A DNA stretch of 64,000 bases from Caldisericia bacterium (lineage in GTDB: Bacteria > Caldisericota > Caldisericia > JAAYUI01), in contig OY771555.1 of NCBI GenBank assembly GCA_963674785.1, positions 74,511 to 138,510 of the forward strand, in the 5' to 3' direction. Positions within the stretch are counted from its first letter, which is position 1, and the number at the start of each line of letters is the position of its first letter. Positions 14,766 through 53,721 of this stretch are shown piece after piece. The translations under genes were made by a program, and so were the position numbers. The notes below the pieces were generated by a model. That model ran no database searches. It was not told the origin of the DNA and saw only the letters and a list, made by a program, of their open reading frames with translations.

Positions 14766-16496
14766 TTACTTCCTCAACAGGATTTTCTCAGGGTACCACT
14801 TCTGAAACCAATTTGTGAAAACAAACATTGGGACAAGAAGAACATATCGAACTATCATTAAGGCAATTGCAATTTTTGGGTAGGACATTTCAACAAGCAT
14901 TATTAGTGCTTCAAGTAAGAAGAATAAACCCCAGACAGAACTAATAATAATGTTTGTCACCAAAAAAGCATTAGACATTAAAACAGATTTGGAAAACCCT
15001 TGCCCTGAATATTCGGCAGTTAATGAGAACCTGTTTATAGATGAACCTAACCACAACGCTCCCAAGAAGACATAATCAATAACCCAGATATACATACCTA
15101 CAAAATTGAGATTTAGAGACAAGAGTACGGACATAACCACAAGATAAGCAGTTGATCCAAACTCAAACAATGTCGGTCTGTTTGTCATTGAATGATAAAG
15201 GAGGACTAGAAGTGAAAGACCGGCAGCAACAAACCTCGGCACAAGACCAGGGAACATGGAACCAAAAACCCATACAACGATCCAGGGAACAAATGCCACC
15301 TGCATCCACGTCATTCCTGAGAGGTTTATAAATCCTCTTTTGTCGGGAATCGATTTTTCATTGGATAAATCACTCATTGCGTCTTCAGGCTTATCTCCTG
15401 ATGAGGTATTGAAAGTCTTATCCATATTCATGAGATAACTCATATCACCTTCAATCTTGTAAGCACCTTTTAAGAACTCAGCTTCGCCATTTGCACATCC
15501 TTCAGATATATCCATCCACAACTTGAGAGGAGAAATAACAGTCATGTCCGGATTTGGGTGTTTTCCACTATAAGCACTTGCCTTTTTCCCATCCATTACA
15601 ATAAACCAATTTTTATCATCCAAGTCGAATTGAATAACACCGTTTGAAGACGCTGCTTTTGAAGGCACATATTGAAGAGCCATCCCTGCAAAAAAAGTAT
15701 CCATTCCGCCAGAAGATATTGACAGAGGTTTTTGTTCAATTCTATGTTCAATCGATTTTGGTTTAACTGCACCCTCTCTTGGTTGTAAAGACTTCCAATA
15801 CTGGTTTGCTGTTTCCAGGAACATTTTTACTTCTTCTTTTGTGCTAGTCGTTGCCTGAACAATCTTTTCTGCTGTATCTTTGCTAATCTTGAGATTTTCA
15901 GCAAGCTCTTGACCGGTTTTTTCTGCAAGAGAAAGGATTTCTGTAAATAACTGATCAGATCCTCTGGCAAGAGGCTCTGAGCCTGGAAGGAGAAAATGTC
16001 CTGCGAAAAGATCTCCGATTGTTGACCCATAAACCTTTTCATACCTTTTCAGAAGTGGATCGAAATGAGATCTTTCAGGGAATCCACAGACAGAGATAAG
16101 AAAAACCTTTGGGTGTGGCTTATCTCCTCTTATTGGATGACCAGTCGTATCTCCTCTAGCAACAAGATATGGCTGCACCAAAGGAAGTTGTCTATCGGTG
16201 AAGTTTTTAAAGATACCTGTAACATCATAATAATAAAGAGGGGTGGAATGAATCACCAAATCAGCATTTCTAATCTTTTCAAGTATCTCCACCATGTCAT
16301 CTTTGTGTACACACTGACCAGGTGTTTTTGTCCAACAGGTATAACATCCAATACACGGATTTATATTCTTGTCAACGAGAAAAATCTCATCTACATCGGC
16401 ACCATTTTTCTTCATCCCTCTAATAAGTCTTTCGGCAATCTTATAGGATGCGGATTTTTTCCTTCTTGGACTTCCAAGGATCACAACTGCTTTCAT
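14766..16496 (-). CDS. Three-domain fusion protein: iron-sulfur-flavoprotein-like NADPH-dependent FMN reductase, then an SCP2 lipid-binding domain, then a polytopic membrane domain
   Basis: N-terminus: 'MKAVVILGSPRRKKSASY...NPCIGCYTCWTKTPGQC' is the Isf/FMN_red motif. Middle: 'FDLDDKNWFIVMDGKKASAYSG...GCANGEAEFLKGAYKIEGDMSYLMNM' is SCP2-like. C-terminus: about 5-6 hydrophobic helices. Confidence 0.7.
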   Translation of the reverse strand: MKAVVILGSPRRKKSASYKIAERLIRGMKKNGADVDEIFLVDKNINPCIGCYTCWTKTPGQCVHKDDMVEILEKIRNADLVIHSTPLYYYDVTGIFKNFTDRQLPLVQPYLVARGDTTGHPIRGDKPHPKVFLISVCGFPERSHFDPLLKRYEKVYGSTIGDLFAGHFLLPGSEPLARGSDQLFTEILSLAEKTGQELAENLKISKDTAEKIVQATTSTKEEVKMFLETANQYWKSLQPREGAVKPKSIEHRIEQKPLSISSGGMDTFFAGMALQYVPSKAASSNGVIQFDLDDKNWFIVMDGKKASAYSGKHPNPDMTVISPLKLWMDISEGCANGEAEFLKGAYKIEGDMSYLMNMDKTFNTSSGDKPEDAMSDLSNEKSIPDKRGFINLSGMTWMQVAFVPWIVVWVFGSMFPGLVPRFVAAGLSLLVLLYHSMTNRPTLFEFGSTAYLVVMSVLLSLNLNFVGMYIWVIDYVFLGALWLGSSINRFSLTAEYSGQGFSKSVLMSNAFLVTNIIISSVWGLFFLLEALIMLVEMSYPKIAIALMIVRYVLLVPMFVFTNWFQKWYPEKILLRK

Positions 16497-18663: not shown

Positions 18664-20040
18664 CTATCTATAAAATATCAAGGTAAGAGCTCTATTAAAC
18701 GAGGTTATGTCTCTAATCTCTTTTGAATCAAGGCTTACAATCACTTCCTGGTTACCGTCAACGGCGATCATGGATGGCGTACTATATAGTCCTAAGGCTG
18801 AAACGACCTCAAGTGCAAGGTCGATAACAAGAGGCGATTTTCCAATTCTTCCAGTGAAACCTTTAAGCTTGTCTTCTTTTGATTTTGAGACAAAGATTAT
18901 GTCTTCTTCAGGGAAATCGTTTTTCATGAGTTCATCTCTAACCTCGGCTGCTCGATTCATACAGCTTCCGCATGATGATACATATATGAAGACTACTTTA
19001 TGACCATTAAACATTTCCTTGGTAAGATTTGTACCCATCGTGGAAACCATCTCTGGCCAATAAATCTGAGTTCCTTTTGTCAAAGAAAGTATCCCAAACG
19101 GGAATTTCTCTTTATAGGCACCATATCCATTATTTTTGATAAAATTGAGTTTCAGAGCTTGTGCAACTTTCTCTTTCAATTCAGCTGCAGTCGGTCCAAA
19201 ATTAAACTCCTTTGGTTCAGGAGGAATAAATCCAGCTATTTCATCTGCAGATAATCCTACAAAACTACTCCAAATCTTTTGTTCAATCTGCCACCTTGCA
19301 GGATCAGGTTGAGGATGGATTGGATCAATCCCAATTATTCGACCATCATTATCAATTCTAAGTGATGACCTTCTATTTTGAATCTCAAGGACACATGCGA
19401 TATATTTCTTTTGATAGTCTTCATCAAAAACATCAAAGAATTCCAAAGTTTTTGGTTCAGCACTCACACCTGGTTCAGGATCAGAAACAGTTGCGTTTGG
19501 AATTGGCGAACTGTATTCATTTTCAGCAATTGAATATTGTACAATGCACGCATCAGTAATATCACCATAATAGAAAACTACTTTTCTTGCTTTATTTTCA
19601 TCAGTTGGGTCAGGTGTGACAATAATTTCAGCTGTCCCTGTTTCTTCAAACTCTTTTGTTACAGGAATCTCATCAAGACCTTTTCTCTCAGTTGGTGCAC
19701 TCATTGTCACACTTACCCTTGAAACATCACTATATGGGATACCTTCAGATGACCAAAGATCTTCATGGATGACACCGGTCACTTTAAACTCGGCACCCTT
19801 AAAAAACTCCATCAGCTCTTCTCCATAATATGGCATCTGTGTCACAAATGTATCCTTATCAGGACCAGTAAAAACCATAGACTGATGTGAAAGATCAAAA
19901 ACGGTTTCCCAGTTACCATGGGAGATTTCTGTAAGCAATTCGACAACAAGCTTTCCATCCTCATTTCCTCCACAAGATACAAAAGTAAAGGACGAAACAA
20001 TAATCACAAGTACCAACAAAAAAGTTATTCTCTTCATCAT
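18664..20040 (-). CDS. Lipoprotein with a C-terminal thioredoxin-like (TlpA/redoxin) domain
   Basis: Lipobox 'SSFTFVSCGGNE'. The C-terminus has 'HKVVFIYVSSCGSCMNRAAEV', i.e. a CxxC in a thioredoxin-fold context. Confidence 0.6.
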   Translation of the reverse strand: MMKRITFLLVLVIIVSSFTFVSCGGNEDGKLVVELLTEISHGNWETVFDLSHQSMVFTGPDKDTFVTQMPYYGEELMEFFKGAEFKVTGVIHEDLWSSEGIPYSDVSRVSVTMSAPTERKGLDEIPVTKEFEETGTAEIIVTPDPTDENKARKVVFYYGDITDACIVQYSIAENEYSSPIPNATVSDPEPGVSAEPKTLEFFDVFDEDYQKKYIACVLEIQNRRSSLRIDNDGRIIGIDPIHPQPDPARWQIEQKIWSSFVGLSADEIAGFIPPEPKEFNFGPTAAELKEKVAQALKLNFIKNNGYGAYKEKFPFGILSLTKGTQIYWPEMVSTMGTNLTKEMFNGHKVVFIYVSSCGSCMNRAAEVRDELMKNDFPEEDIIFVSKSKEDKLKGFTGRIGKSPLVIDLALEVVSALGLYSTPSMIAVDGNQEVIVSLDSKEIRDITSFNRALTLIFYR

Positions 20041-21812
20041 TCAACCTCCATAATAAGAAACTCATCTGACTGAGCTAAGACTCTAAAACTATTATTCGCC
20101 CAATCAAGTAGATTTTCTTCAATATAAAGTGGTGCAGATTCGGTAATATCCTCACCAACTCCAATAGATACATCATACAAATCCCTCGGGACATCAGATA
20201 GTAACCAACCAAGACTATTTGAGCCGATCGGGACATCAATAAATTCATGTGTAAATGTTGCATCAGACGTTTGAGATTCCAGAATCACTTCCACTTTTGA
20301 AAAATCATCAGATGCAATAAACTCAAGATTCAAGTATTCTTGAGCTCTTATTGGAACAAAAACCCTGAAATTTCTTCCTCTTAGCTCTGTTTGTTTCCAT
20401 TCAAAAAGAGCTGTTTTTGAAAGAAGAATATAGTCACCTTTTTCAGGGGTTTTCCCCTCCGGTAAAGCTACCTCACCACGACTCTTTCGAATAGCTAGGT
20501 AATTGTCAGTCCAGTGCCTATATAAAACTCCACAATGCTTTTCTGTGGCGTACGTAACCCAAAAACGCAATCCATGTCTTGCGTATAAGTTTTCAGTGTA
20601 TTCAAGCCCATCTGTTTCCAAAAAGTTATTTAAATCAACAAGCTCTTGGATAGTAACAACAGGTCTTGCAAGCTTGATCGTTTTTAAAACTGTATCGTGA
20701 TAACCGGTGACCGCAAAAACTGTTAATGCCATCAAAACAGCCAAAGACACATAAATAACCTTCTTCTGAGAGACCAATCTCGACAGGTGATAGAATCCAA
20801 GTCCAATAAGTATTGAGAGAGGAACAAACATCGTCAAAATGTTTCTTTCCTGCCACTCATACTCACAAAGGAAGAGTGCAACAATGAAAACAGCAAGCCC
20901 AAAGCCGAAAAGCCACAAAGTGAGTTTTCTCCACTTTTTATATGACCAGAACAAACCAAATGCTGGGATTGCTACATGTAGATAATCAAGAAAATTAAAG
21001 TCGACCTGCATTTGATAACGATGGGAGAATAAACCTTTTACTGATGTGATCATGGTTTTCCAGCCATTCAAAGAAAGCTGGACAAAATATCGGGATAGGA
21101 TTGGAATGATAAGTGGGGTGGTGACAATTCCAAGACCAAGTAGTCCCCACATCACAAAGGAAATGATTTTACCATTTTTCCAATTAGATGATGGGAGCAT
21201 AACTGCTAAAATCACAAAAGAACAAGCCAGGAAAATTATTGAGGAAGGTGTATGTGAAAGCAATACTCCAATAAGGGAAATTACCCAAAACAAAAGGCTT
21301 TTTTTCTGATTCTTCTTCTCAATAAACCAATAAAGGGAAATCAGTCCAAAAAGCAATATTGGAAGTGCTACAGTCTGCTTAAGATAACCCAGAGGATACC
21401 AAAAAACTCCGAGTGAAACACACCATCCAAGTAGACCAGCAAATGCTGGTAGATCATCTTTTGTTACTTTTTTCAAAAAATCAAATATCAGCCAGCCGAC
21501 CATCACAATGGAAATAGTTGATACAATCTTTATTCCAGCATGAGCACTTCCAAATAAGAACCCGCAAAAGGCTGAAAGCAGAAATGGAAGAATTGGTGAT
21601 CCTGAAAATGGCATTTTTTTAAAATTCATTAATGCCTGTACATTAGCGGCGTTATTGCCGCCATCCATATTAAGAGCGAGTGGATGCCTGAATTGAATGA
21701 TTATGAGTCCTGCAGCTAAGATACTTAAAATCAAAAATGCAACTATCCAAGAGGAATGTTTCTTGATAAACCTTATGAACGGATTGTTTTGGAATGTTGA
21801 AACTACTGTCAT
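20037..21812 (-). CDS. Polytopic membrane protein, possibly a GT-C-type glycosyltransferase (PMT/ArnT-like)
   Basis: About 12 hydrophobic helices in the N-terminal 400 aa, then a soluble C-terminal domain. I did not see the DE motif clearly, so the call rests on architecture only. Confidence 0.4.
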   Translation of the reverse strand: MTVVSTFQNNPFIRFIKKHSSWIVAFLILSILAAGLIIIQFRHPLALNMDGGNNAANVQALMNFKKMPFSGSPILPFLLSAFCGFLFGSAHAGIKIVSTISIVMVGWLIFDFLKKVTKDDLPAFAGLLGWCVSLGVFWYPLGYLKQTVALPILLFGLISLYWFIEKKNQKKSLLFWVISLIGVLLSHTPSSIIFLACSFVILAVMLPSSNWKNGKIISFVMWGLLGLGIVTTPLIIPILSRYFVQLSLNGWKTMITSVKGLFSHRYQMQVDFNFLDYLHVAIPAFGLFWSYKKWRKLTLWLFGFGLAVFIVALFLCEYEWQERNILTMFVPLSILIGLGFYHLSRLVSQKKVIYVSLAVLMALTVFAVTGYHDTVLKTIKLARPVVTIQELVDLNNFLETDGLEYTENLYARHGLRFWVTYATEKHCGVLYRHWTDNYLAIRKSRGEVALPEGKTPEKGDYILLSKTALFEWKQTELRGRNFRVFVPIRAQEYLNLEFIASDDFSKVEVILESQTSDATFTHEFIDVPIGSNSLGWLLSDVPRDLYDVSIGVGEDITESAPLYIEENLLDWANNSFRVLAQSDEFLIMEVE

Positions 21813-23248
21813 TGTCCCAAATACTTCCTTCTCATCTCAGCCTCTTTTCCACAAGACATTCTACCTTCTCTACAAGCACCATAAAAGACGCATGATGGTC
21901 CTACTCGAGAGAAAATCTTTGGAGCCTTTTCTTTGAGTAATGTCAACATTCTATCAGCATAATCCCTGATCTCCCACTGAGCACGATTGCATGTTCGAAG
22001 CAACAGGAAATGTATCAGCTCCCTTGCATTAATAGTTGTTACAACATTTATCGCCTGTCCTGATAACAATGTGTAGACCCTGTTTTCTGGTCTCACCTCA
22101 AACCTGTCCATTGCAAGACTGAATGAATCATGAGAATTAACTGCAGACTTAAAGACTGAGTGTGCCTCTGTTACTTTTTTGATTGATTCGGGCTCTATTA
22201 TGTGTCGGCACTTATAAAGATTCGAGAAATTTGGAATAATGATTGACTGGATTCTGTGCCTCACAAGGTGTGTTAGAGTTGGAAGACTCATCCCTCGGAG
22301 AGAGAAGGTGAAATTTACCTGTTCAAGCTCCCTGGCATGTCTGTGTTTTAAAACCTCATCAATAACTTTGTCTTCAATTTCATCAGTTATTGCTTCATCG
22401 ACTTCATTCGAATCCATACCTGTATCGGCCATAATTGCTGCTTTTGTGAGTGTTCTATCGGGATCAGGAGTACAAGCGATGATATCGACACCCACTCTCG
22501 TATCGACATCATCTTTTTTTGTAATTAACTTGGAGATTGAATTCAAGTCTCTTGCTTTCCCAAATTCGAATGCTTCGATCTTTGAAAACATTGCAGGGGC
22601 AACTCTGGAAAGCATTTTTTGCAGTGTTGCACCAATCCATGTGACTTCAGGGAAAGCAGCTCCACGACCATGAATTGCATCATATATAACATGAATCCAT
22701 GTTCTTGCATTTGCTGTCAATATGAAATTTGACTTGAAAGAATACGGCAATATAAACCTTGCATCCTCCGGGGGAATCCCTATATCGAGGAGTTTTTTAT
22801 ACGCAAGAAACAGCCCTTCACAATAGTGAACATATCGCTGTGAAAGAGGACCATAAAACTCTGGTCCCACATATGGTTTATCTGTGTTCCCCCAAAGATC
22901 ATTTTCTCCCTCGGGAGCAAGATATGGAACAATATATCCAGCATCAGCATGTGAAACATATCTCCTCGACTTCACAGTGAATGATGCAAGTCGATGAGTT
23001 ATCATGTATTGCTCAACAAAAACAGAAACATTTTCAAAGGCTATTGTAAAATTTGCGTGTTCAGAAACTGATTTGTGTCCCATTCCAATTATTCTTCGAA
23101 GTGAATCAGGGTGTCCACCTTCGGGAGTTTTTTCATATATCTCAGTTGGTTTTCCAGGCAGAGTCGAAACTCTAGCTGAAAGAGTACAAATCCTCTGTGG
23201 ATCATCAGTTCCTGTCAAAAGAGTCAATCTTGTATCATTGCTCTTCAT
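21809..23248 (-). CDS. thyX: Tandem-duplicated ThyX-like protein (FAD-dependent thymidylate synthase fold), 479 aa
   Basis: Two copies of the ThyX motifs. Copy 1 has 'HKSVSEHANFTIAF...ITHRLASFTVKSRRYV'. Copy 2 has 'LEQVNFTFSLRGMSL...LVRHRIQS' plus 'ARELIHFLLLRTCNRAQWEIRDYADRM'. Confidence 0.65.
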   Translation of the reverse strand: MKSNDTRLTLLTGTDDPQRICTLSARVSTLPGKPTEIYEKTPEGGHPDSLRRIIGMGHKSVSEHANFTIAFENVSVFVEQYMITHRLASFTVKSRRYVSHADAGYIVPYLAPEGENDLWGNTDKPYVGPEFYGPLSQRYVHYCEGLFLAYKKLLDIGIPPEDARFILPYSFKSNFILTANARTWIHVIYDAIHGRGAAFPEVTWIGATLQKMLSRVAPAMFSKIEAFEFGKARDLNSISKLITKKDDVDTRVGVDIIACTPDPDRTLTKAAIMADTGMDSNEVDEAITDEIEDKVIDEVLKHRHARELEQVNFTFSLRGMSLPTLTHLVRHRIQSIIIPNFSNLYKCRHIIEPESIKKVTEAHSVFKSAVNSHDSFSLAMDRFEVRPENRVYTLLSGQAINVVTTINARELIHFLLLRTCNRAQWEIRDYADRMLTLLKEKAPKIFSRVGPSCVFYGACREGRMSCGKEAEMRRKYLGQ

Positions 23249-23256
23249 AATAGTCC

Positions 23257-23847
23257 CTACAGTCCCAACTCTTTAGAAATTCCCTTCATAGCCTCAAGAC
23301 CAATTCCAATAAATTCTTCAAGACTCAATCCAAGGCTAATGCAGTTTTCGATTTGATCCCTGTTTGCTCCTGCCGCAAAACGCTTTTCTTTGAATCGATT
23401 CAAAACAAAAGGCACATCAATCGATGAAAGCTTTTTGTCTTTATGAATCAAAGCACAAGCAACAATCAGCCCAGTGAGAGGATCGCATGTGTGAAGAGCT
23501 TCATCCATTTTGCTGACCCTTTTAACACCGGTCATTGAGTTGTGACAGGAAACAGCATAACAGACATCTTCTGGGTAACCGAGTTCTTCCAACCACTTTG
23601 ACCCAACAAGGGCATGTTTCTCTGGAGTTTTCTCAGTTTCAGTATAATCAATATCATGAACCAAGCCTGCCAAACCCCATAGTTCTTCGTCCTCACCAAA
23701 CTTTTTTGCAAGCTGAGACATCACAGCCTCTGTAGCCAGCATATGTTTGATAAGATTCTTATTGCTGATCTTCTCTAAAACAAGCTTATACGCAGATTCT
23801 CTGGTAATCATGAGCCACCCTTTTATATTGATTATCGCAAACTCCAA
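23257..23847 (-). CDS. HD-domain phosphohydrolase
   Basis: Has 'GLVHDIDY' and an upstream His, which is the HD motif. The protein is 196 aa. Confidence 0.7.
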   Translation of the reverse strand: MEFAIINIKGWLMITRESAYKLVLEKISNKNLIKHMLATEAVMSQLAKKFGEDEELWGLAGLVHDIDYTETEKTPEKHALVGSKWLEELGYPEDVCYAVSCHNSMTGVKRVSKMDEALHTCDPLTGLIVACALIHKDKKLSSIDVPFVLNRFKEKRFAAGANRDQIENCISLGLSLEEFIGIGLEAMKGISKELGL

Positions 23848-28150: not shown

Positions 28151-28681
28151 TTGTTAACTAGAAAAGAAAAAGAAACATCAGTAAAAGAGATCAGAGAAAT
28201 CTGGGATGCTTCAAAGGGAATGATCGTTATCGATTCACAGAAACTTGAAGCAGGTGCCATTTCAGAACTCAGAAAACAGTGTCGCGAAGCTGGAGTTAAA
28301 CTTAAGGTTTTCAAGAACACCCTTGTAAAGCTCGCACTCAAAGATCTTGAAATCGAAGGAATTGACAAACAGCTCAAGGGGCCAACAGCCACAGCTTTTG
28401 CTATGGAAGAAATGCCAGCAGCAGCAAAGGTATTTTCTGAATTCAAAAAGGACTACCCAAAGAAGCTCATCATCAAGGGCGGCGTCATGGAAGGCAAAGT
28501 CTTTGACGAAAATGGAGTCAAGCAGCTCGCATCAATCCCACCAAGAGAAGTTCTTCTTGGAATGGTTGCAAGCGCATTCAATGGTCCAATCGTCAAGTTT
28601 GCAAGAGTGCTTCAGGCAAATATCACTGGTATCGCCCGTGTGCTTGATGCAGTAAGAGAAAAGAAAGAAAAAGCAGCATAA
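28151..28681 (+). CDS. rplJ: 50S ribosomal protein L10 (TTG start)
   Basis: L10 family by position and by sequence ('[14 protein letters not shown]...'). An RBS 'ggaaggagga' lies upstream. Confidence 0.95.
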
Positions 28682-28713: not shown

Positions 28714-29094
28714 ATGTCAAAAGACGAAATATTAGAAGCAATCGAAAAAATGACAGTTCTTGAACTCTCAGAACTCGTTAAAGCAATCGAAGAGAAATTC
28801 GATGTATCAGCAGCAGCAGCCCCAGTCATGATGGCCGGAGGAATGCCAGGTGCTGGCGGCGGAGATGCCGGTGGCGACGAACAGACCGAATTCGACGTAA
28901 TCCTTGTCGAAGTCGGACAGCAGAAGATTCCAGTAATCAAGGCAGTCAAAGAACTCTCAGGACTTGGACTCAAAGAAGCAAAAGCACTCGTCGATGCAGT
29001 TCCAAAAGCAGTCAAAGAAAAAGTCTCACAGGAAGAAGCAGACGAAATCAAAGAAAAGCTCTCAGCAGTTGGTGCTGTTGTCGAGATCAAGTAA
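28714..29094 (+). CDS. rplL: 50S ribosomal protein L7/L12
   Basis: '[31 protein letters not shown]...AAAA...[10 protein letters not shown]...[24 protein letters not shown]' is canonical L7/L12. Confidence 0.97.
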
Positions 29095-29202: not shown

Positions 29203-29688
29203 ATGAAGACTCTGGTTGCCTACGCAACGAAATCTGGAACATCTGAAAAGTGCGCAAACCTTATCGCGAAGGAGTTTGACAATGTCGATATTGTAAACCT
29301 GTCAGAAACTGCACATCCGCAGTTCCTTGAATACGATCTGATCATTGCTGGTGGTCCAGTCCGAATGGCCAACCTTCACGCACATCTGATTAGGTTCTTG
29401 AAAGCAAACATCAGAAAGCTCGAAAAAAAGAATATCGCCCTTTTTATCTGTTGCATGGAACAGGGTGAAAAGGTTCAGGAACACATTGAAAAAGGATTCC
29501 CAAAACAGCTTCGTGAAGTAGCCCTTGCAATATCACATCTGGGCGCTGAGCTCAACTGGGACAAAATGGGCACGCTTGAACGTGCCATGATGAAAAAAAT
29601 TGTTTCATCCCAGAAGATTGATGAACCTTGTATCAATGAGGATGCAATAAAAGGATTTGTTGAGAAGATAAAGGCAAGCTTGGCCTAA
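29203..29688 (+). CDS. Flavodoxin-like protein (Flavodoxin_5/HemG-like fold)
   Basis: 'MKTLVAYATKSGTSEKCANLIAKEF...YDLIIAGGPVRMANLH' is a flavodoxin-type FMN-binding N-terminus. The protein is 161 aa. Confidence 0.6.
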   Translation: MKTLVAYATKSGTSEKCANLIAKEFDNVDIVNLSETAHPQFLEYDLIIAGGPVRMANLHAHLIRFLKANIRKLEKKNIALFICCMEQGEKVQEHIEKGFPKQLREVALAISHLGAELNWDKMGTLERAMMKKIVSSQKIDEPCINEDAIKGFVEKIKASLA

Positions 29689-35312: not shown

Positions 35313-35465
35313 GAAGCTTTTAACATTTATTTATCAGTTGATGGTTTTTTAGTTGGCTAGCTCTAACAAATTTGGTGAAAAAGGGTTAACTGTCAGTTAA
35401 TCCAATGTGTAATTAGTCTATTGACCAATTCAGGCAAAAGGCTAATCTAGTTGGTGGAGGTCAAT

Positions 35466-38400
35466 ATGAAAAAACTTGTTGCTGCCGTCATTTGTATATT
35501 ATTAGTCGCAGGGCTTGTCTTTATTTCCCCTGTTGTTTTTGCAGAAGAAATAAATGTAATTGATATTAATGCTACCATATCAGATGGAAGTGTGACTCTT
35601 AACTGGGAAAAGCAAACTGCATCCACAATCTATGTTTACAGGGATTACTACAAAAATGCTAAACCTGTGGCAACCCTCAACCCAACCGACACAAGCTTTA
35701 CAGAAAGCCCTACTCCTGGTAGCCACACATACTCAGTAATGATTATAGGTCGGGATGGTAGGGTTGCTTGTAGGTCTTCCGTTCTTCCGACATATATACC
35801 TCCAGAGTGTGAATATCCGGACAACACAATGATCAAACTTTGGATTGGCAAAAAAACAATGGGTGTTAACTGTGATACACAAGAAATCGATTCAGAACCA
35901 ATAATCATTCAATCAAACACTTTTGTTTCAATCAGACCAATCATTGAAGCTGTTGGTGGATCACTGGGTTGGGATGGAGCAACAAAATCTGTTATCGTAA
36001 ACCTTCCACCACATTCTGTTTCACTTTCAATTGGCAAAAACACCGCAACAGTTGATGGCAAAGAGGTGCAAATAAACAGCAATCCAGAAATCGTTCCCGT
36101 AATTGTAAATGGAAGAACAATGCTTCCATTCAGATTTATCGCTGAGAACCTCGAAGGAACAGTTGAATGGATCGGCTCTGAAAAGAGAATTGATATTCTT
36201 TTCCCGCTTCAGGAAAAAGTATCAGTAAGACGTGCAATGTCAGGAATGACATCTCTTGGAAGAAACTCACTTGGTCAGATAGTCAGTCTGAAAGATGTTG
36301 AAGAATTAGAAACAGACAATCCTATCGATGAGTTTCTAAAAGGGGCAAAGGTTTTAACTGGTACTGACTCAATTGAAGCAGTCCCGATTCTTGAATACAA
36401 GGACATAATTGGAAGACCAAACAGTTTGACAAAACTGTCTGACTGGCTTGGAATGTACAACCAAAACCTCAAAGCATACAAAATTTCATATAAATCAAAT
36501 CTGAGCAGTTTGAATGACTTTGATTCTGTTATTCTTCTAACCTCTGATGGTGAAATAGTTGATGCAACCTTTATCACTGCAGGTTTTGATTTCAATATTG
36601 AAAGTTCAGATACCGAAAAAATGAACTATCAAATACTGTTACCAAGAGCATCGGTAAAAAACAAAAAGTACACATGGAATATTGAATCAATCCCTATGAC
36701 TGCAAGCAGCAAAGTCACATCACTCAACTTAGATGAACCACCAGGATGTGACACATGTTCAAGGACAGTTGGCAATGCCAATCTATCTTTTGAAAACAAA
36801 GCAACAGAAAACCTCAGTCAAGCAAACAACATGTCGCTTGTTTTGCTTTCTTCTCTTGTTGATTTTTCCTTTGATATATCAGGAGGAGAAGGATTGACAT
36901 TATCACTTGATGAAGGTTGTGGATTCTTTCCGGGAACGTCATGCCCAAGCATTGATGGAGAGTTTGCTGAGTTTCAGCTTTCTATGGTTGACAATAGACC
37001 CCCAAACAACACATCAACAGTGAATAACTGCTCAGAAGCAGTAAAAGGCACATTCAACATAGCTGAATCAAACTCAAAATGGAACAGAGCAAGTGATGGA
37101 AAGTCTACAAATGAAGATTTCTTATCAATAAATATTGAGGATTCTTCAAGACCACGTTCAATTTCATTGGACATAAAAGAAAATGACCATATGTTCGGTT
37201 TCTTTAAGGTTTTTGCTCTGCCAAAAAGTATTTCTCTTTCACCCAATCCAATGCTGGATATCACTGTGCCAATCCTGAATTCGCCATCCGGAAAACAAGT
37301 TGGTAGATTCAGAGTCTCTGGAACATCTCAACTAAAAATTTCTTTCCCAAATGGAAAACCATCCTGCTGGTTTGGAGATGAAGACAAAGATGGTCAAACT
37401 AACCTCTCCATTAACACGATCGCAATTGATAAATCCACAGATTTTGACTGTCCTTGTGGTGAGACAAATGCCTTTGATTACGTTAATTATGAGATTATTC
37501 AAGAAGAGGGAGTAGGTTCAGTAATATTTGATGTCAGAGTGAACTCCGATATAGCATTTGTCCCAAAAAATGCAGAGGTTTCAATAGAGTTAATTAGGAA
37601 TGACGAGGTTGTCTCAACCCATGATGTATCCTACTCTGACCCATCACTTAATATAACTGATGACACAGCAGAGGCTGGAGAGTTTTATAAATACTGTTTA
37701 AAACTGATTTCAAATAGTGTTGAGATTGAAAACTATTGCATTGAAGAAGAACTTCAACCCAATCCATGGCTATTCTTCATGGAATGGAGCGATGTTCCAA
37801 ACGGAAGAGTTTTAGAAAAAAGCATCGAGAGAGGGTCAGAAGAAAGTTTTGATGTTATCATACACAACGTTTCAGAAAACGTTTTCAAAGCAGAACTCAG
37901 CATAAATAATCCAAATTACAAGTGGGATGTTTCATTTGTTGATAAAGAATCTCCGACATGGATTGAACTCAAACCCGGGCAAAAGGAAACAGTAACGCTA
38001 ACAATTTACCCAGACTCATCAATACCATCTGGGGAGAAAAACAACGTTGAAGTTGTTTTGAAAAGCGGACTCCAAACTATGGTTCTTACAGGCATTTTTT
38101 CTGTTTCTGCCCCAAGCTGCTCATATGAGATATCTTGGGTTTCTGGTGGAACAGGTATGGGAAATGATATTAGTCCAGGAACAGAGTTAATAGAAATCTT
38201 TACGATCAAAAACACAAGTAGCCAACAGCAACAATTTATTTTGGACTACAGCACCGAACAAGACAACACAAATACATTCTGGAATATAGGATTTAAAGAT
38301 CAGAGGAAGGGTGGGAAAATCTTCCTTGGGTCAGACGAAGAAACACAGGTGGCATTTGCAGTTTCATCGCCACAGGGAGCCAAAGATGGTGAGACTTTAA

Positions 38401-39545
38401 AAATAAAGATTGAAGTTCTAGGATGTGGAGAGTCAAAAGAGCTATCATGGTCAATAACAAACAAATTAATGGAGTGTTCATTTGAACTCGAGTGGGCTGA
38501 AAAGAAATCAACAACAAGAACAACCGTTGAAACAGACTCAAGATGGAACGAGACTTTTTATGTTTGGAACTTCAGTGATTATGAGGGAGTGTTTACTCTC
38601 GATGTCGAAGTAGAAGGAGAACCGATTGTTGCATATTTAGATAACTATGATCTAAAGATTAAAAGTGGCACATACGAAGAGGTCACGATCACATTCCAGA
38701 TTCACGCGAAAGCAAAAGTTGGTGATTCCTCTGTAAATATCGTTGCAACATGCGGTAAAACAACTCAAACCTTAGATCGAAGATTTTTAATTAAGAAAAA
38801 GAGTGACTGCCAATTTGAATGTTACTTCCTTGAATCTGAAACAAGTAACCTTGGTAAAGACATGGAAGTTGGCAAAGAAGTTCAGATACCTATTTATGTC
38901 AAAAATAATAGCGTTGATCCACAGCTTTTCTCGGTAAAGGTTGTAAGAAGTGAAACGGATTGGGCATCTGGTCTTGTTGAAGGAAAAGTCAGACAGACAT
39001 TCAATCTCGGATCGGGTGGTGACACAAGCAATCTTGTTGTATGGATAAGAGGTGAAGACGACACAAAACCCGGAGATACATGTAAGCTTTCGATTGTAAT
39101 AACTGCGTGCAACACCAAAAAAACAATCGTGTGTAACATCACATGTGTTGAAAAAACAGAACTTGATGTTGAACTTGAGCAAGAAATCACGTTCAGAAAC
39201 TGGAAAAAGAACGGTATGCTTGAGGTTGGGAATCGAATTGAGTTTAACAGAAAAGGAAGCGGTAACATCCTAACACAAAATTACAAGATCAAATTCTTTG
39301 ATGCCCAGCAAGATAATGCATACATCGGTGAACTTGATGAAGTCAGACTCGTAATGTCAATCTACAAAGGTAGACCACAATGGGATTTCAAATACTATGT
39401 CTCGACTGAAATAATAGAAAAACTGAAATCATTTGACAGCAAAAAGATTAAAGCAAAGATGACTATCTCAATGCTTTATACTCACGATGATGGGACTACA
39501 GATGTAGTAAAAAAAGAACTTGAAACCATATTTGAGCTTCCATAA
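35466..39545 (+). CDS. Large secreted cell-surface protein (about 1360 aa) with a copper-amine-oxidase-N-like domain near the N-terminus. The start is at 'MKKLVAAV'; the track ORF starts at 35451.
   Basis: Signal peptide. Residues about 120-270 read 'SIRPIIEAVGGSLGWDGATKSVIV...NGRTMLPFRFIAENLEGTVEWIGSEKRIDI', which is Cu_amine_oxidN1-like. The remainder is repetitive beta-rich sequence. Confidence 0.7.
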   Translation: MKKLVAAVICILLVAGLVFISPVVFAEEINVIDINATISDGSVTLNWEKQTASTIYVYRDYYKNAKPVATLNPTDTSFTESPTPGSHTYSVMIIGRDGRVACRSSVLPTYIPPECEYPDNTMIKLWIGKKTMGVNCDTQEIDSEPIIIQSNTFVSIRPIIEAVGGSLGWDGATKSVIVNLPPHSVSLSIGKNTATVDGKEVQINSNPEIVPVIVNGRTMLPFRFIAENLEGTVEWIGSEKRIDILFPLQEKVSVRRAMSGMTSLGRNSLGQIVSLKDVEELETDNPIDEFLKGAKVLTGTDSIEAVPILEYKDIIGRPNSLTKLSDWLGMYNQNLKAYKISYKSNLSSLNDFDSVILLTSDGEIVDATFITAGFDFNIESSDTEKMNYQILLPRASVKNKKYTWNIESIPMTASSKVTSLNLDEPPGCDTCSRTVGNANLSFENKATENLSQANNMSLVLLSSLVDFSFDISGGEGLTLSLDEGCGFFPGTSCPSIDGEFAEFQLSMVDNRPPNNTSTVNNCSEAVKGTFNIAESNSKWNRASDGKSTNEDFLSINIEDSSRPRSISLDIKENDHMFGFFKVFALPKSISLSPNPMLDITVPILNSPSGKQVGRFRVSGTSQLKISFPNGKPSCWFGDEDKDGQTNLSINTIAIDKSTDFDCPCGETNAFDYVNYEIIQEEGVGSVIFDVRVNSDIAFVPKNAEVSIELIRNDEVVSTHDVSYSDPSLNITDDTAEAGEFYKYCLKLISNSVEIENYCIEEELQPNPWLFFMEWSDVPNGRVLEKSIERGSEESFDVIIHNVSENVFKAELSINNPNYKWDVSFVDKESPTWIELKPGQKETVTLTIYPDSSIPSGEKNNVEVVLKSGLQTMVLTGIFSVSAPSCSYEISWVSGGTGMGNDISPGTELIEIFTIKNTSSQQQQFILDYSTEQDNTNTFWNIGFKDQRKGGKIFLGSDEETQVAFAVSSPQGAKDGETLKIKIEVLGCGESKELSWSITNKLMECSFELEWAEKKSTTRTTVETDSRWNETFYVWNFSDYEGVFTLDVEVEGEPIVAYLDNYDLKIKSGTYEEVTITFQIHAKAKVGDSSVNIVATCGKTTQTLDRRFLIKKKSDCQFECYFLESETSNLGKDMEVGKEVQIPIYVKNNSVDPQLFSVKVVRSETDWASGLVEGKVRQTFNLGSGGDTSNLVVWIRGEDDTKPGDTCKLSIVITACNTKKTIVCNITCVEKTELDVELEQEITFRNWKKNGMLEVGNRIEFNRKGSGNILTQNYKIKFFDAQQDNAYIGELDEVRLVMSIYKGRPQWDFKYYVSTEIIEKLKSFDSKKIKAKMTISMLYTHDDGTTDVVKKELETIFELP

Positions 39546-41331: not shown

Positions 41332-44300
41332 TTAGTAGTATCTGGTCATTGTTATGAGTCGTTCTTCACCATTCCAGGCGACCTCAGCTCCAAGTGATTC
41401 AGCGATGAATCTAAATGGAACCATCGTTCTTCCGTTTACTATTTCTGGAGGCTGGTCAATTGTCACAAACTCACCATTAAGTACTGCAGTTTGCTGGCCG
41501 ATAACCATCGACAGATTGATGTCTTCAAGTTGAACTGTGACCCTTCTTGCGGTTTGATCCCACCCTACCTCAGCTCCGAACGCTTGAGAGATAGCCCTCA
41601 CTGGCACAAGTGTTCTGTTTGCAGAAGATATGTATGGAGCAGTATCAAGCATAACAATCTCACCATCAACAAGCATGATCTGATTATCAATTTTCAGTTC
41701 GATAGTCTTTATCCTGTATCCCCACACTTCAATATCTGATTTTGATTCATTACCAATTTTATCAGTTGCAACATAATCAAATTTATTGCTTCCGATATTA
41801 ATTGGAATGACAACTTCATTGGTTCCCTCAAGCAGTTCTAAGGTCTCACCAGCAATCACGAATGTTACATCTTCACTTACTGTTACGGTGATTGTTGCTT
41901 CTGTTTTATCAACAGTATCACGCTTGAGTGGAGGAATAATTTTCACATATGGAGGAGTTGTGTCTCTTGTGATAACAACGGTCATTTCTGTTTTTGTACC
42001 AACAGGGTTGAATGATGCCACAACAAATTCATTCTTGCCTTCGACAAGGTCAACATTTACAAAGAAGCTCCCATCAGCACCTACACTTACAGGCTTTCCA
42101 TCAACTGAAAGTGACGCATCGGGTGTTGTTTTACCCTTTAATGTCATATCGGTTTCCCTTGTGAGTTCCTCATACTCCTCAAATTCAATAAATGGAGCCT
42201 GTGACGAGGAAACAACATCTATGACTTCGGGATTCACAGTTTTGTATTCACCAAGAAGTCTGATTACAATTTGTCCTGGTTTGCTTGGTAAAACATCAAA
42301 CTCAGCTTGTCCTTCAGAATTTGTCTCAGCCTCCATACTTACACCTGCACCTTTAACAGATACAGCAACACCAACAAGAGGTTTTCCGTATGAACCGGCA
42401 TACTCGACATTTACAGTCACTTTCTTTAGAAGTCCAGGATAGAACACACCGGAATGCTCAACACTTATTACAGCACCTTTGACGGTGTCAAATGTGAGGA
42501 CATCACCGGACTCAATGAGGTCGTCACTGAAACTGCTCTTTGCTTTATATTTCAGAGTTACATTTGATTCACCAATTGAATTTGGCTCAAAGTGAATTGT
42601 AGCCATTGTTGAAAGCTCATCATCTGGGTCACGTTTTGTTTCTTCAGTTACTTTCTTGTTTCCTGTAATCGACGATACCTCAACAACTGAACCCTCTTTT
42701 ATTGGGTCAGTTTCAAGTGGAGAACTCGGAGTGACAGTCACCTGAAGAACATTGTCAGCCTTATTGACAAGGTCATAATTAGAGGTACTAAGGAACTCAG
42801 AACCCCACTCCTGACCAGTCTTATCTTCGAAGATTTTAATTACTGGTTTCTGGATTGGGACATATGTTGTTGTTGGGGAATCCCAATCGAGAGCAAACTG
42901 TCCATCAGGTGAGTATCTGAGTTCTGGGTTGAATGAAACTGCCTGTGATCGAGGTGTTTCACCTGCTACATCACCATTGATGACGGATGCCTTATTTGCT
43001 CCAACAAATCCACCAAGTCCAAATTCTGAATCAGCAAAGATATAGAAGGTAACCGAACCATTTTTATCGATATTCAATGAATCCTTATAATCGACCATGC
43101 CGTCACCATTGAAGTCAGAGACATAATAGTTACCAGCGAGCTCTGAATTATAGATACATCCAGCTCCCCACTTCTCAAGATCCATTGATGTACCATCCAT
43201 CTCTGTTCCTGTTTTGTAGTAGGTACTCATTGCAGCAACATCTTTCATGTCAGCACTTACATTATCTGTAACCGAGACTGCAAGGTGGTTGAACACTTCG
43301 ACATCATCATCAGTTGCAGTTTTGACAAGGAATGGTGTAAATCTTGTGAAGTCAGTTGCAGAACCAATTTTGCCTGGAAGATTTGAAACGCCCTTAATAA
43401 GATTTCCTTCGGCATCTCTGATTGTTGCTTTGATCTTATATACCCTTGAATCAAATGCAGTCATAACGGCATCTGGATCTTCTGGATATTTCATTGTTTC
43501 GTGGTGTTCCTGGGCAAGGTTTATGATTTCATAACTGACTGTTGGTCTGCCGACCTTTATTGATGCAACACCCCATCCACTATAGTCAGGTGTTACGATC
43601 TTGAGATTTATTTCACCCTCATCGTTTGCAACGAATCCTTCGAATTTATAGATTCCCTTGCTTGCCTGTGAGAAGTCATATTTGATTGGTGAGAATCCGA
43701 AAAGTGATTCATTATCAGAAAGAGTGCTGTTCTCATTTGTGATAGATGTTGTTGTCCAATAATACTCGTTTGTTCTGTCCGGTCGTTTCTGTGTGATGTA
43801 ATTTGCAGCCTCTTCGTCAGTTAGTTTTCCATTCTTTGTAAGGTCAACTGGGCTTCCACTATCATCCGTGATTGTAAGGGTCAATGGTGTTTCAGGATCG
43901 ACAATTTCAGGGGAGACACCCGATGTAAGGATTGGAGGACTTACGTTAACTGTAATATTTGGGTCAGATGGAATTCCTCCACCTGCCATTGGTCTCATTG
44001 TTATTTCACCTGCAAGATAAACCTCATGTGAATAATACTTGCTGTTACCTGGAACCTGCCATAGTGGTGTGAAGCTTCGGTCATTATTATCATCACCATA
44101 CTTGTATGCACAAAGATGGATTGGAAGTTCCTCTTTTTCAGAGATCAGGTGGTCTCCATTGAAGTCCCAACCATAGTCTTCAATTCGACATCCATTATCC
44201 AGACTCATATCAAAGATATATCTACCGTTATTCCTCTGATAAGTTCTCGCATCAATTATTCCACCAACCCACGTGTTTGTAGCAATATTATATGATCCGA

Positions 44301-47300
44301 TAAGCTCTGTTTCATAAGCATCAAATGATATTCTTCCATCACCATTGAGGTCATCATATTTTGAGTAAGCACCACTTACCCCAGAACCAACCGAAGATGT
44401 TGGGCCACCTGTAATCCAACCATCACCGGCACCCTCAAGAAGAGTTGAGCCATCTTGATATCTGACTCCTCTATCCTGCCAAGCAAAAACAAGAGCATCG
44501 TTACATTCTCTATTCTGCTGAATATCTTCCCATTCTGTAATTTTTACATCAACAATATTATCTGAACCGAGTCCTATTGTTGGAGATGCACCTTCAATAT
44601 GAAGTCCATGAACAGGAATTCCAACGATTCGGTATTCCTGACAGCAGTCTTCCCAATATTTCTTTGTTCCATTTGCAAGCTCAACCATAATTGAGAGGAC
44701 ACCCTTATCTACAGGGATAATTTCATCGAACACAAAAACTGAGGAACTTAACATGGAGTAATCAAGATCTCCATGCTGAACAAGTCTCTGATTTGCAGTA
44801 CTATATGTATATCTATCCTGGAATCCTGGATTGATTATTCTCGTATAATCGGCAGAACCGAGTTCATAGTCACTCCAGTTTGTAGTGTCAACTGTAATTC
44901 TTCCAGAATAATCATATCTTATCGGAGCACCTCTAAGACCATTGTATTCATTATCTTCATAATCCATTGGAAGCTCAGGGATTTTAAATGGGCCGCTGAT
45001 CTCTATTCTTCTGATCTTGTGGTCGCTATCTGTTGCCGTAAATGAAAGAGGTTGCCCAAGTCCATCCATAAGCATAAAGAAGATTCCGTAATCTGTAAGT
45101 GGCGTAAACTCTGTTCCCATCTTATAATACATGTCACCCCAGATTGCAGGATAAGCACTTCTTCCATCGCCCATAGTGCTTCCCTGAATTCGAAGTGGAT
45201 GGGTCTGACCACCAGGATAACTCCTAAACTCTCTGACAAGGTTCGATAAAATTGGGTCATATGGTGTTTGAATCTGAGGAGTTGGCACATCAAATCTTGA
45301 AAGTGCACCAGTTCCAGCAGTGTAATTGACATTTGAATACTGAAGAGCATGGTCTACAACTCTGAATTCAACAAAGTTCACATCAGGGTCTGTGATGTTC
45401 CCACCGCCACCAGATGATCCACCACCGCTTGAACCACCACCAGATGATCCACCGCCTGTACTTGTTGAGTCTTTGCCGATTATGAATATTCCGCAGTAAT
45501 CTGTTCCTTCGGCATTGGATGGAACAAAATATGGAGGATGAGTGATTGTGCTGTTATAATCCCAGAGAGCATTTTCAGTATGCACTCTAACATTCAAGTT
45601 AGACGATGTGTTTCTTGGGTAAACCGCGATTGGAAGCATTCCGCCGCTTTCAGCCCAAGGTGATGTTTTGTATGTTGATACAAAGGTCGGTACCCCATAT
45701 GTTTCGATCAATGGATATGTAGCACCATCAAATGGCCCCCAACTGTCACCCTTTGTGACGACACCTAACTCATATCTGAAACCTGATCCGCAAATATCAC
45801 ATTCAGCAAACCTACCAGAACAATCAAGATCCTCAAATGAGTCTGTTGCACGTTCTCCTTCAAGCGGTCCAGTTACAGTATCTTCAGGGTCAACAGCACC
45901 AATTGCTCCCAGCCCAGTTGTTGGGCTTTGGTTATCAGCCCATTCCCACACAAGGAAGGTTCTATCGTCATTAACCTGAACAATATATCTGTTTGGACCA
46001 CTTCCTGCAGTAAACATCCAGTCAACTCCAGCACCATTAGCATTATATGTCGCAATGATATTGCCGGCATTTGGTGTTGTTGAAATAGGAACTCCGTTCA
46101 AGTCGTTAACATCATATGGATTATCCCAATCCTTCAATGTGAGAGACATGTTTGGGTATCTGATACTGATATTCTGCAAACAAGAAATATTGCATTCAAA
46201 ATCGATTGGTTCTGGTTTTACTTCAAACTCTTTTACGTAATAACAGTCATAGTTATTTGGAATGGTTGTATTACCAAGAATGCTTGGTGATGGAATCTCC
46301 CAGTAACCATAGGCTCCATCGGTAGGGCCACCCCATCCAAGATCGGCAGGGTTTCCAGTTCCCTTTTCATAATATACTTCAATAATATATGGATGGATGA
46401 TTCCAAACTCATCACATGAACCCTCGTATGGGGTTATTTGAACCTGAAGCTCTGATTTCTTATTTGACAGAGTTCCTGCGACATTTCTATGTCCTGATGC
46501 ATCAGTTAAAACAACAAATGCAAGTTTATTTTCCTCTGGGGCGGGATTCATTGTGATTTTTACGGAAGATGTCTGCTCAACCTGGAATTCTTTATCAACA
46601 GTAATACTTATTGGTGCTTCACCCGGGAGAACCTCAAGATCAAGAGCTCTTGGGTTCCCATTTTTTCCCATTGTAAAACCAGTTACAACGAAATTTTCAA
46701 TGTATGTTTCGGGTCCGGCAACAACACTACCACAAAAATATGTCTTTCCTGATCTTGAGACATTTGAAAGCCTTGTGTCACCAACGCTTACAGTATTTGA
46801 AAGGTCTGCATCATAATACATCCACTCAGTCTCATCAAATTGAACATCATAGTCGACATCAAAATATCCTGTGTTGCTAAATGGTGAAAGAATAAAGCCA
46901 ACATCAGCATCACCAGTTGTTACAATAGAGCCTGCTGGGAATGTAACGATTACACCGCCAACCTGAACTGTGATTGTCGTCATCCTAACATCACCATTGT
47001 TGACAATATGATTGCCAAATGGATCTTGACCTGTATTTACATTTGTGTAGATACCTTCACCACAACCATAACCAACTCCACCCTCATCATGATAATAGAA
47101 ATCTGATGGGAAAGGAGTGAGCGACAAACCAGTATCAGTATCAGTTGTTCCACTTGCCGATGCTCCGATAAATGCCTCACAAGCCTCCTCTGCTTTATAG
47201 TCATCGGTGAGGTTTTGGGCAAAACAACTTCCTGATGGGTTGTTGATATTATTTACACCATCATCTCTGAATATCTCAACACCGAGCCATCCTCTATACT

Positions 47301-48144: not shown

Positions 48145-48211
48145 CGTATTTCTCCTTATCCATATTTCAGGATTGTTTTGAAACAAATACGATGTTTTTA
48201 CGCTTAAAGTT

Positions 48212-53511: not shown

Positions 53512-53721
53512 GAAAAATACAATAGCATAAAAAAAATGTTTAATCAAATTTTTATGAAGGATTTCTCCCCATGAAACCAAAAACCAAATAGGACTCATTA
53601 GCAAGAAGATTTCTTCAAATTCCAAAGCACACTCGCTGAATAATTATACATAATATTAAATATTAAACAAGTATCAATCTCTTTGTTGTTTAAAAATGTC
53701 GAAAACATAATATTAGTTGCA

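Follow-up and report, generated by a model that had tools for sequence, protein, structure and literature searches.

The enzyme ThyX is essential and serves as a target for antibacterial drugs; to our knowledge, its mechanism has been worked out solely on single-domain homotetramers. Structures of the canonical enzyme, also called FDTS (flavin-dependent thymidylate synthase), include those from Thermotoga maritima (TM0449, 1o26), Mycobacterium tuberculosis (Rv2754c, 2af6/3gwc) and Helicobacter pylori (3n3y), in which four identical subunits form four active sites. Here we describe a gene of a different build, found in a 64-kb stretch of the genome of a Caldisericia bacterium (contig OY771555.1; the whole stretch is referred to below as the window). 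The gene occupies positions 21809-23248 on the minus strand and encodes a 479-residue chain with two ThyX domains, in which the active-site residues are divided between the halves, and with four invariant cysteines (Cys4). It is likely to be a flavin-dependent thymidylate synthase of a distinct, widespread subclass of tandem, sub-functionalised Cys4 ThyX proteins.

Each active site of canonical ThyX is built by three subunits, as seen in the M. tuberculosis, H. pylori and T. maritima structures (PMC6514825, section 3.1). Subunit A places its RHR triplet against the phosphates, ribityl chain and isoalloxazine ring of flavin adenine dinucleotide (FAD), and reaches deoxyuridine monophosphate (dUMP) through the first arginine of RHR and R199 (M. 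tuberculosis; R174 in T. maritima). Subunit B supplies S71 and R190 (T55 and R165 in T. maritima), and subunit C supplies S105, R107 and Y108 (S88, R90 and Y91; PMC6514825). A duplicated form of ThyX was mentioned by Valas & Bourne (2009), who noted that it 'has not been characterized' and reported that Chloroflexi have a duplicated ThyX as their sole thymidylate synthase (PMC3224940). The ThyX fold has also been recruited to another pathway in PolB, the UMP/dUMP C5-methylase of polyoxin biosynthesis (4p5a/4p5b; PMC5954106).

A single chain with two ThyX domains

The first-pass annotation, made from the letters of the window, had described an open reading frame (ORF) of 479 residues with two ThyX-like repeats. 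That description holds, on the minus strand, which had been left out; PF02511 (Thy1) matches the protein twice, and all the motif strings that had been quoted are present, the RHR triplet being residues 330-332. The features of the gene are as follows.

21809..23248, minus: tandem ThyX coding sequence, complete, 479 aa plus stop; ATG start, stop at 21809-21811; Pfam Thy1 twice and TIGR02170
22586..23224, minus: N-terminal ThyX domain, residues 9-221 (domain match and residue map)
22958..22999, minus: N-half motif THRLASFTVKSRRY, residues 84-97, with RHR degenerate, S-x-R-Y intact and the family-specific K93 and R95
22493..22585, minus: inter-domain linker, residues 222-252, weakly conserved, with one short helix
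21908..22492, minus: C-terminal ThyX domain, residues 253-447 (domain match and residue map)
22253..22261, minus: C-half RHR triplet R330, H331, R332, canonical and invariant or nearly so
21971..22000, minus: loop LRTCNRAQWE, residues 417-426, with R418 (T. maritima R174) and the first invariant cysteine, C420 (position of T. maritima D176)
21812..21907, minus: C-terminal extension, residues 448-479, GPxC453-x5-C459(P/R)EG-x3-(S/T)C466G (comparison with PDB entries, and conservation)

The whole protein scored 246.5 bits against PF02511 over two stretches (cutoff 24.8) and 187 bits against the NCBIfam equivalog TIGR02170, thyX (cutoff 87.9). Scored separately, as the first-pass annotation had proposed, both halves matched PF02511, with 129.4 bits for residues 1-240 and 121.3 bits for residues 241-479. 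Likewise, both passed TIGR02170, in each case just over the cutoff (98.7 bits for the N-half and 91.8 bits for the C-half). The canonical single-domain relative P0222 reached 243.9 bits with PF02511 and 198.1 bits with TIGR02170, about twice the score of either tandem half. An AlphaFold2 (AF2) monomer model was obtained with a predicted local distance difference test (pLDDT) of 94.6 and a predicted template modelling score (pTM) of 0.92, and Foldseek searches with this model returned ThyX folds exclusively, at a TM-score of about 0.75 per domain, 4p5b being among the matches. By fold and by profile cutoffs the protein thus belongs to the ThyX family, as does each half taken alone.

The N-half and the C-half share an identity of only 20%, which argues for an old duplication. 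More than 3800 homologues were detected, the closest three being 90%, 66% and 58% identical and annotated as Caldisericia, so the tandem ORF is not a product of chance.

Active-site residues are divided between the domains

Both halves of ten diverse members were aligned to T. maritima ThyX, whose numbering (Tm) is used below. We take the reference sequence to be that of the T. maritima enzyme; its segments match the PDB alignments of this analysis. The N-half retains Tm H53, S/T55, R80, S88, R90, Y91, R147, N163 and R165, with H58, S60, R86, S94, R96, Y97, R164 and R182 standing for H53, T55, R80, S88, R90, Y91, R147 and R165, respectively. It has lost R78 and H79 (E-F in the family consensus, T-H here), R174 and the AQWE loop; the replacement of the first arginine of RHR by a threonine, already pointed out in the first-pass annotation, is T84 in THRLASFTVKSRRY. 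The C-half presents the reverse picture, retaining R78-H79-R80 (R330-H331-R332), N163, R165 (R409), R174 (R418) and AQWE(I), and lacking T55, R147 and S88/R90/Y91 (now N340/S342/N343), with a variable residue at the position of H53. The second repeat, which had been taken as canonical, is therefore so in its RHR triplet and AQWE loop, and not in S-x-R-Y or the R147 equivalent, both of which are absent.

Conservation was examined in the query and 110 diverse homologues, with identities down to 26% (n=111). In the N-half, R96, R164 and S/T60 are present in all 111 sequences, S94 in 110 and H58 in 109; in the C-half, R330, R332 and R418 are present in all 111 and H331 in 110. The positions lost from either half are variable and unconstrained. 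Moreover, the identical pattern of retained and lost residues was found in 72 of 72 proteins drawn independently from GTDB species-representative genomes. In canonical ThyX the RHRx7SxRY motif is contiguous, whereas here a contiguous R-H-R-x7-S-x-R-(Y) occurs in neither domain: the N-half has T-H-R...S-R-R-Y (family consensus E-F-R...SRRY) and the C-half has RHR, the full motif arising only when the halves are combined.

Compared with the three-subunit site of the known structures, the residue set (A: RHR and R174; B: S/T55 and R165; C: S88, R90 and Y91) is complete across the two halves and 95-100% conserved. Since the retained sets match these roles, the C-half appears to serve exclusively as subunit 'A' and the N-half exclusively as subunit 'B/C'. 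The fused chain taken as a whole has the same catalytic residues as canonical ThyX, which shares its fold, Pfam family and TIGRFAM, and the chemistry with FAD and methylenetetrahydrofolate (CH2-H4folate) is presumably shared as well. An asymmetric fused pseudo-dimer had been foreseen in the first-pass annotation; the residue map sharpens this to reciprocal degeneration, in which neither half carries all the catalytic residues, whereas between them nearly all the catalytic and binding residues are kept in one copy.

Two further features of the N-half were noted. It keeps R86 (Tm R80) despite the loss of R78 and H79, and residues 194-201 (22646-22669) form a conserved G-R/K-G...E patch at the position occupied in the C-half by C420 and the AQWE loop.

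Proposed assembly

We propose that an ancestral single-domain ThyX already bearing the four-cysteine module was duplicated and fused, after which the copies would have specialised. The C-half would take 'role A', its R-H-R holding the FAD phosphates and isoalloxazine and touching dUMP, together with R174, and the N-half would take both 'role B' (H53/S55 and R165) and 'role C' (S88/R90/Y91/R147, clamping dUMP). Two chains would come together as a four-domain pseudo-tetramer. In a D2 arrangement, a geometry that is itself predicted, working sites would form only if the C-halves were related by a true two-fold axis. Because the residue sets of the three-subunit site are split between the halves, such a homodimer would hold two intact composite sites, each made of one C-half and both N-halves, and two reciprocal dead sites, each made of one N-half and both C-halves. 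Each chain is expected to hold a single FAD and a single active site, giving two sites per four domains in place of the four of the canonical homotetramer. Even so, the two 'dead' pockets may have kept the ability to bind some ligand or partner.

The same logic has a laboratory counterpart. Leduc et al. reportedly engineered H. pylori ThyX heterotetramers in which subunits defective in different active-site residues regained activity when mixed; those were separate mutant chains, whereas in the tandem protein complementation would have been fixed by evolution within one polypeptide.

The tandem architecture also recurs in viruses, where a Microcystis phage LMM01 protein (BFVD A0A7D4, 491 aa) aligns over both domains with a TMq of 0.61 and 15% identity. 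A further phage protein, annotated 'thymidylate synthase' (BFVD A0A6B7EUB9, 461 aa), likewise aligns over both domains (TMq ~0.6, ~15% identity). The viral forms are possibly of independent origin. Chlamydial ThyX, at about 529 aa, may be another tandem form.

Distribution of the tandem form

An exhaustive search of representatives gave 5735 matches at E<1e-3, of which 153 fell below 1e-30, most of these being tandem proteins of 430-500 aa. The tandem form was confirmed in at least 597 species genomes, where it looks like an ordinary, single-copy gene. Among the carriers listed most are Clostridia (Oscillospiraceae, Ruminococcaceae, Lachnospiraceae, Faecalibacterium, Roseburia, Acutalibacteraceae and Christensenellales), and the others include metagenome-assembled genomes (MAGs) of Bacilli/'Tenericutes', a Micrarchaeia archaeon and Deltaproteobacteria. 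Split-gene, heteromeric versions were considered and rejected, the half-size matches being contig-edge fragments or, in one case, a gene cut short next to an IS66 transposase. Searches of the PDB by sequence and by structure found no tandem ThyX.

ThyA and ThyX have been described as 'largely exclusive', and most Clostridia and Deltaproteobacteria have ThyX without ThyA in the table of orthologous groups (COG) of the same study (PMC5954106). These ThyX-without-ThyA lineages are where the tandem form abounds.

A four-cysteine site

The first-pass annotation had placed a cysteine cluster at the very end of the protein. The motif, CVFYGACREGRMSC (residues 453-466), is present, although 13 residues follow it before the C-terminus, and a fourth invariant cysteine, C420, had been overlooked. 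C420, C453, C459 and C466 are each found in 119-121 of the 121 closest homologues, in 108-110 of the 111 diverse sequences and in all 72 genome-derived proteins. Among the exceptions, the final cysteine of P0152 is set off by a longer gap; P0218 and P0001 were rejected as natural variants owing to frameshifted C-termini, and P0246 owing to truncation. In P0001, the Caldisericia MAG homologue with 90% identity, the last ~35 residues are wholly divergent and the three tail cysteines are missing, which looks like a frameshift or an assembly error and not a genuine variant without cysteines.

C420 lies at the position of Tm D176; R418 (Tm R174, which contacts dUMP) precedes it by two residues and R422 (at the place of Tm H178) follows it by two. 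The C-terminal extension that carries the other three cysteines is mostly loop and was modelled with an AF2 pLDDT of 94-98. No solved ThyX structure has this tail: the PDB sequence matches of the protein end before the extension, and the tail alone gave no match among PDB sequences.

The four-cysteine motif is also found, by strict motif match, in about a quarter of the single-domain ThyX proteins of Micrarchaeota and Bathyarchaeia, which have the canonical RHR..SQRY. Its presence in these proteins suggests that the module is older than the duplication and not tied to it. Single-domain Cys4 ThyX (P0222, MCX6777973.1) shares with the tandem form the R-x-C-x-R-A-Q-W-E loop and the GPxC-x5-CPEG-x3-xC tail, and is 35% and 31% identical to the N-half and C-half, respectively, compared with 30% and 26% for T. 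maritima ThyX. In contrast to the tandem form it keeps the full canonical motif (RHR..QQSQRY, with an arginine eight residues before RHR in 120 of 120 sequences) and is presumably an ordinary four-site homotetramer.

Four invariant cytoplasmic cysteines indicate a metal site, and C420 with C453, C459 and C466 probably binds a metal, either as a [4Fe-4S] cluster or as zinc. Searches against Pfam gave no Fer4 or radical-SAM match in the tandem protein, and nothing on iron-sulphur (Fe-S) or zinc in ThyX was found in the full-text literature.

Genomic neighbourhood

At 76 loci of species-representative genomes the ORFs on either side of tandem thyX were clustered, and none of them is a universal neighbour. 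The commonest is thymidylate kinase (PF02223), lying less than 800 bp away in about 20 of the 76 loci, either divergent from thyX or directly downstream in the same orientation. 5-Formyltetrahydrofolate cyclo-ligase is nearby in 14 loci, and a conserved redox partner adjoining the gene was found in none. In Desulfoluna the gene lies between Wood-Ljungdahl/folate genes (FTHFS, CODH/ACS and RACo) and panB. In Pelotomaculum schinkii the order is cysS, a Ribonuclease_3-domain gene, thyX and, further on, genes for a SpoU-family methylase, NYN_YacP and a sigma-70-family factor; we take the Ribonuclease_3, SpoU and sigma genes to be mrnC, rlmB and sigH. At this locus (L001, 9425-11387) three consecutive genes without a Pfam match (309, 235 and 108 aa) separate thyX from rlmB.

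In the window the neighbours of tandem thyX are co-directional, with 8-bp gaps or overlaps of 4-8 bp, the TGA stop of thyX overlapping the start codon of the gene that follows (ATGA). Besides thyX, the cluster encodes an HD/HDIG protein, a polytopic membrane protein (591 aa), a putative lipoprotein (458 aa), a protein of 225 aa and a TehB-like methyltransferase. The two genes that adjoin thyX are as follows.

23257..23847, minus: upstream HD/HDIG-domain gene, 196 aa, 8 bp from thyX (generic HD domain)
20037..21812, minus: downstream overlapping gene for the 591-aa polytopic membrane protein (a homologue has a weak PMT_2 glycosyltransferase match)

The HD, membrane-protein and TehB-like arrangement recurs in Caldisericia relatives only, with the HDIG gene directly upstream of thyX in three of the three Caldisericia loci examined (the window; L004, 9441-9995; L006, 9447-10001). 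Taken across lineages, the neighbourhoods point to dTMP (deoxythymidine monophosphate) and folate metabolism and not to a pathway shared with the HD protein and the methyltransferase.

The HDIG domain of the HD protein is of a generic kind; no equivalog was found, and its PDB matches, to Ap4A (diadenosine tetraphosphate) hydrolase-like proteins, are only marginal; a nucleotide phosphohydrolase feeding dUMP is conceivable from its sequence. The 591-aa membrane protein is a lineage-specific neighbour with no evident tie to ThyX. Family searches with the 591-, 458- and 225-aa proteins gave no match. By eye, the 458-aa protein (18664-20040, minus) has a lipobox-like FVSCGG near its N-terminus and a CGSC (CxxC) at its C-terminus, which together suggest a thioredoxin-like lipoprotein, and its gene adjoins that of the membrane protein across Caldisericia.

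Elsewhere the window, with a G+C content of 36-42%, carries tRNA-Trp, nusG and an L10 leader. In the segment 27989-29688 the leader is followed by ORFs at 28151-28681 and 28714-29094, presumably rplJ and rplL, and by the gene for a Flavodoxin_5 protein (29203-29688), after which come minus-strand ORFs without a Pfam match; no rpoB or rpoC follows the leader and its two ORFs. Three proteins of 1364, 2284 and 759 aa with Cu_amine_oxidN1 'stalk' domains are encoded at 35451-39545 (plus), 41332-48186 (minus) and 51346-53625 (minus), one of them also having a PQQ-like (pyrroloquinoline quinone-like) beta-propeller. The thyX loci of related Caldisericia are flanked by proteins of this kind too, so these are probably surface proteins typical of the lineage. 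A 576-aa protein (14766-16496, minus) shows the unusual pairing of an NADPH-dependent flavin mononucleotide (FMN) reductase/flavodoxin-like domain with an SCP2 sterol-carrier domain.

Discussion

The residue pattern and the gene neighbourhoods suggest that the tandem protein would convert dUMP, CH2-H4folate and a reductant to dTMP. The first-pass annotation had instead leaned on the operon partners to suggest a different substrate, and the gene could accordingly be a neo-functionalised ThyX-fold enzyme that modifies UMP, dCMP, another nucleotide or a nucleic acid in a pathway with the HD hydrolase and the methyltransferase. ThyX paralogues of altered specificity are known, as shown by PolB (PMC5954106), whose structure 4p5b was among the fold matches, and the tight packing of the cluster from the HD gene through thyX to the TehB-like gene, conserved in Caldisericia, fits such a pathway. 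So do the barely exceeded TIGR02170 cutoff of the halves, the loss of one arginine that contacts dUMP and the new basic residues in the substrate loop. However, the equivalents of the dUMP-binding residues S88, R90, R147, R174 and R78 are invariant (S94 in 110 of 111, the rest in all 111), and the Caldisericia neighbours are absent from all the other lineages examined, where the gene has housekeeping or folate/one-carbon contexts and its recurrent neighbours are thymidylate kinase and folate genes. PolB is single-domain, has no Cys4 and lies in a biosynthetic gene cluster, whereas the presence of the tandem family in so many species is typical of a core enzyme and not of a secondary-metabolite paralogue. 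We therefore regard another substrate as very unlikely. A second reading keeps the family and demotes the gene to an accessory or condition-specific paralogue, such as an anaerobic isozyme or a regulator, with a canonical thyA or thyX elsewhere doing the housekeeping. The window covers only 64 kb of the genome, and a second thymidylate synthase is present in some bacteria (PMC5954106, PMC3224940), although the largely exclusive occurrence of ThyA and ThyX, the abundance of the tandem form in the ThyX-only Clostridia and Deltaproteobacteria and the conserved housekeeping cluster around the Pelotomaculum gene all speak against it, as does the tblastn search reported below; this reading is unlikely.

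For the four-cysteine site, the choice between metals is closer. The named carriers belong almost all to anaerobic lineages (Caldisericia, Desulfobacterota, Clostridia, gut Bacilli/'Tenericutes', Bathyarchaeia and Micrarchaeota), and this fits an O2-labile cluster and favours [4Fe-4S] over zinc. A redox-active [4Fe-4S] cluster beside the flavin/folate pocket, passing electrons from reduced ferredoxin or flavodoxin to FAD, is a possible though rather doubtful reading, and the site as an electron entry to the flavin is attractive and speculative. It is quite possible, if short of probable, that the protein is a thymidylate synthase as proposed and that its cysteines hold a structural zinc which staples the extension to the core, with no part in redox or electron transfer. 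Zinc knuckles, too, typically combine four cysteine ligands with proline or glycine adjoining the cysteines, as in GPxC, CPEG and SCG here. H53, which is linked to NADPH and folate use in T. maritima ThyX, has its equivalent kept in the N-half in 109 of 111 sequences, so NAD(P)H could remain the reductant; furthermore, the conserved neighbours at the 76 loci include no ferredoxin-like partner. Against a zinc staple stand the absence of CxxC pairs, the anaerobe-bound distribution, which zinc leaves unexplained and an O2-labile cluster would predict, and the position of C420 near R418 and R422 in a loop lining the flavin/folate pocket, which is odd for a merely structural element.

Several observations weigh against the reading of the gene as a tandem Cys4 thymidylate synthase. 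The arginine eight residues before RHR (M. tuberculosis R87, H. pylori R66), a subunit-C contact to dUMP, is absent from both halves (residues 76 and 322), while it is invariant in single-domain Cys4 ThyX; T. maritima ThyX likewise lacks an arginine at this position. The N-half has gained the conserved K93 and R95 flanking S94 ('KSRRY', compared with 'QSQRY' in single-domain Cys4 ThyX), and this loss and gain together suggest that phosphate binding may differ. The cysteine spacing, C-x32-C-x5-C-x6-C, fits no textbook Fe-S or zinc motif. The tblastn search for thyA or a second thyX found neither in the 64-kb window, the rest of the genome lying outside its reach. The full-text literature yielded no paper characterising a double-domain ThyX and no biochemistry of the tandem form beyond the one remark in PMC3224940, and the duplicated ThyX of Chloroflexi, also with two ThyX domains per chain, is likened to the present protein by description only.

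The annotation 'FAD-dependent thymidylate synthase' is probably right on function and hides a structurally distinct subclass. Tandem Cys4 ThyX is common in nature and correctly named by annotation pipelines, and it is structurally, and probably mechanistically, distinct and unstudied. At least some 600 species, mostly strict anaerobes and including abundant gut Clostridia, use the fused ThyX. With active-site residues divided between its domains it is a natural counterpart of laboratory subunit complementation, and a half-of-the-sites enzyme is to be expected, whose two 'dead' pockets, if the proposed assembly is right, might serve anew as a docking or regulatory site. The Cys4 site, common to single-domain archaeal ThyX and absent from the solved structures, suggests a metal cofactor that has gone unrecognised. 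An Fe-S cluster in this place would bear on the reductant of ThyX in anaerobes and on the selectivity of ThyX inhibitors against commensals; if the cluster were redox-active and passed electrons on to FAD, a large share of anaerobes, among them dominant human-gut Clostridia such as relatives of Faecalibacterium and Roseburia, and many archaea, would make thymidylate through an NAD(P)H-independent, ferredoxin-driven ThyX.

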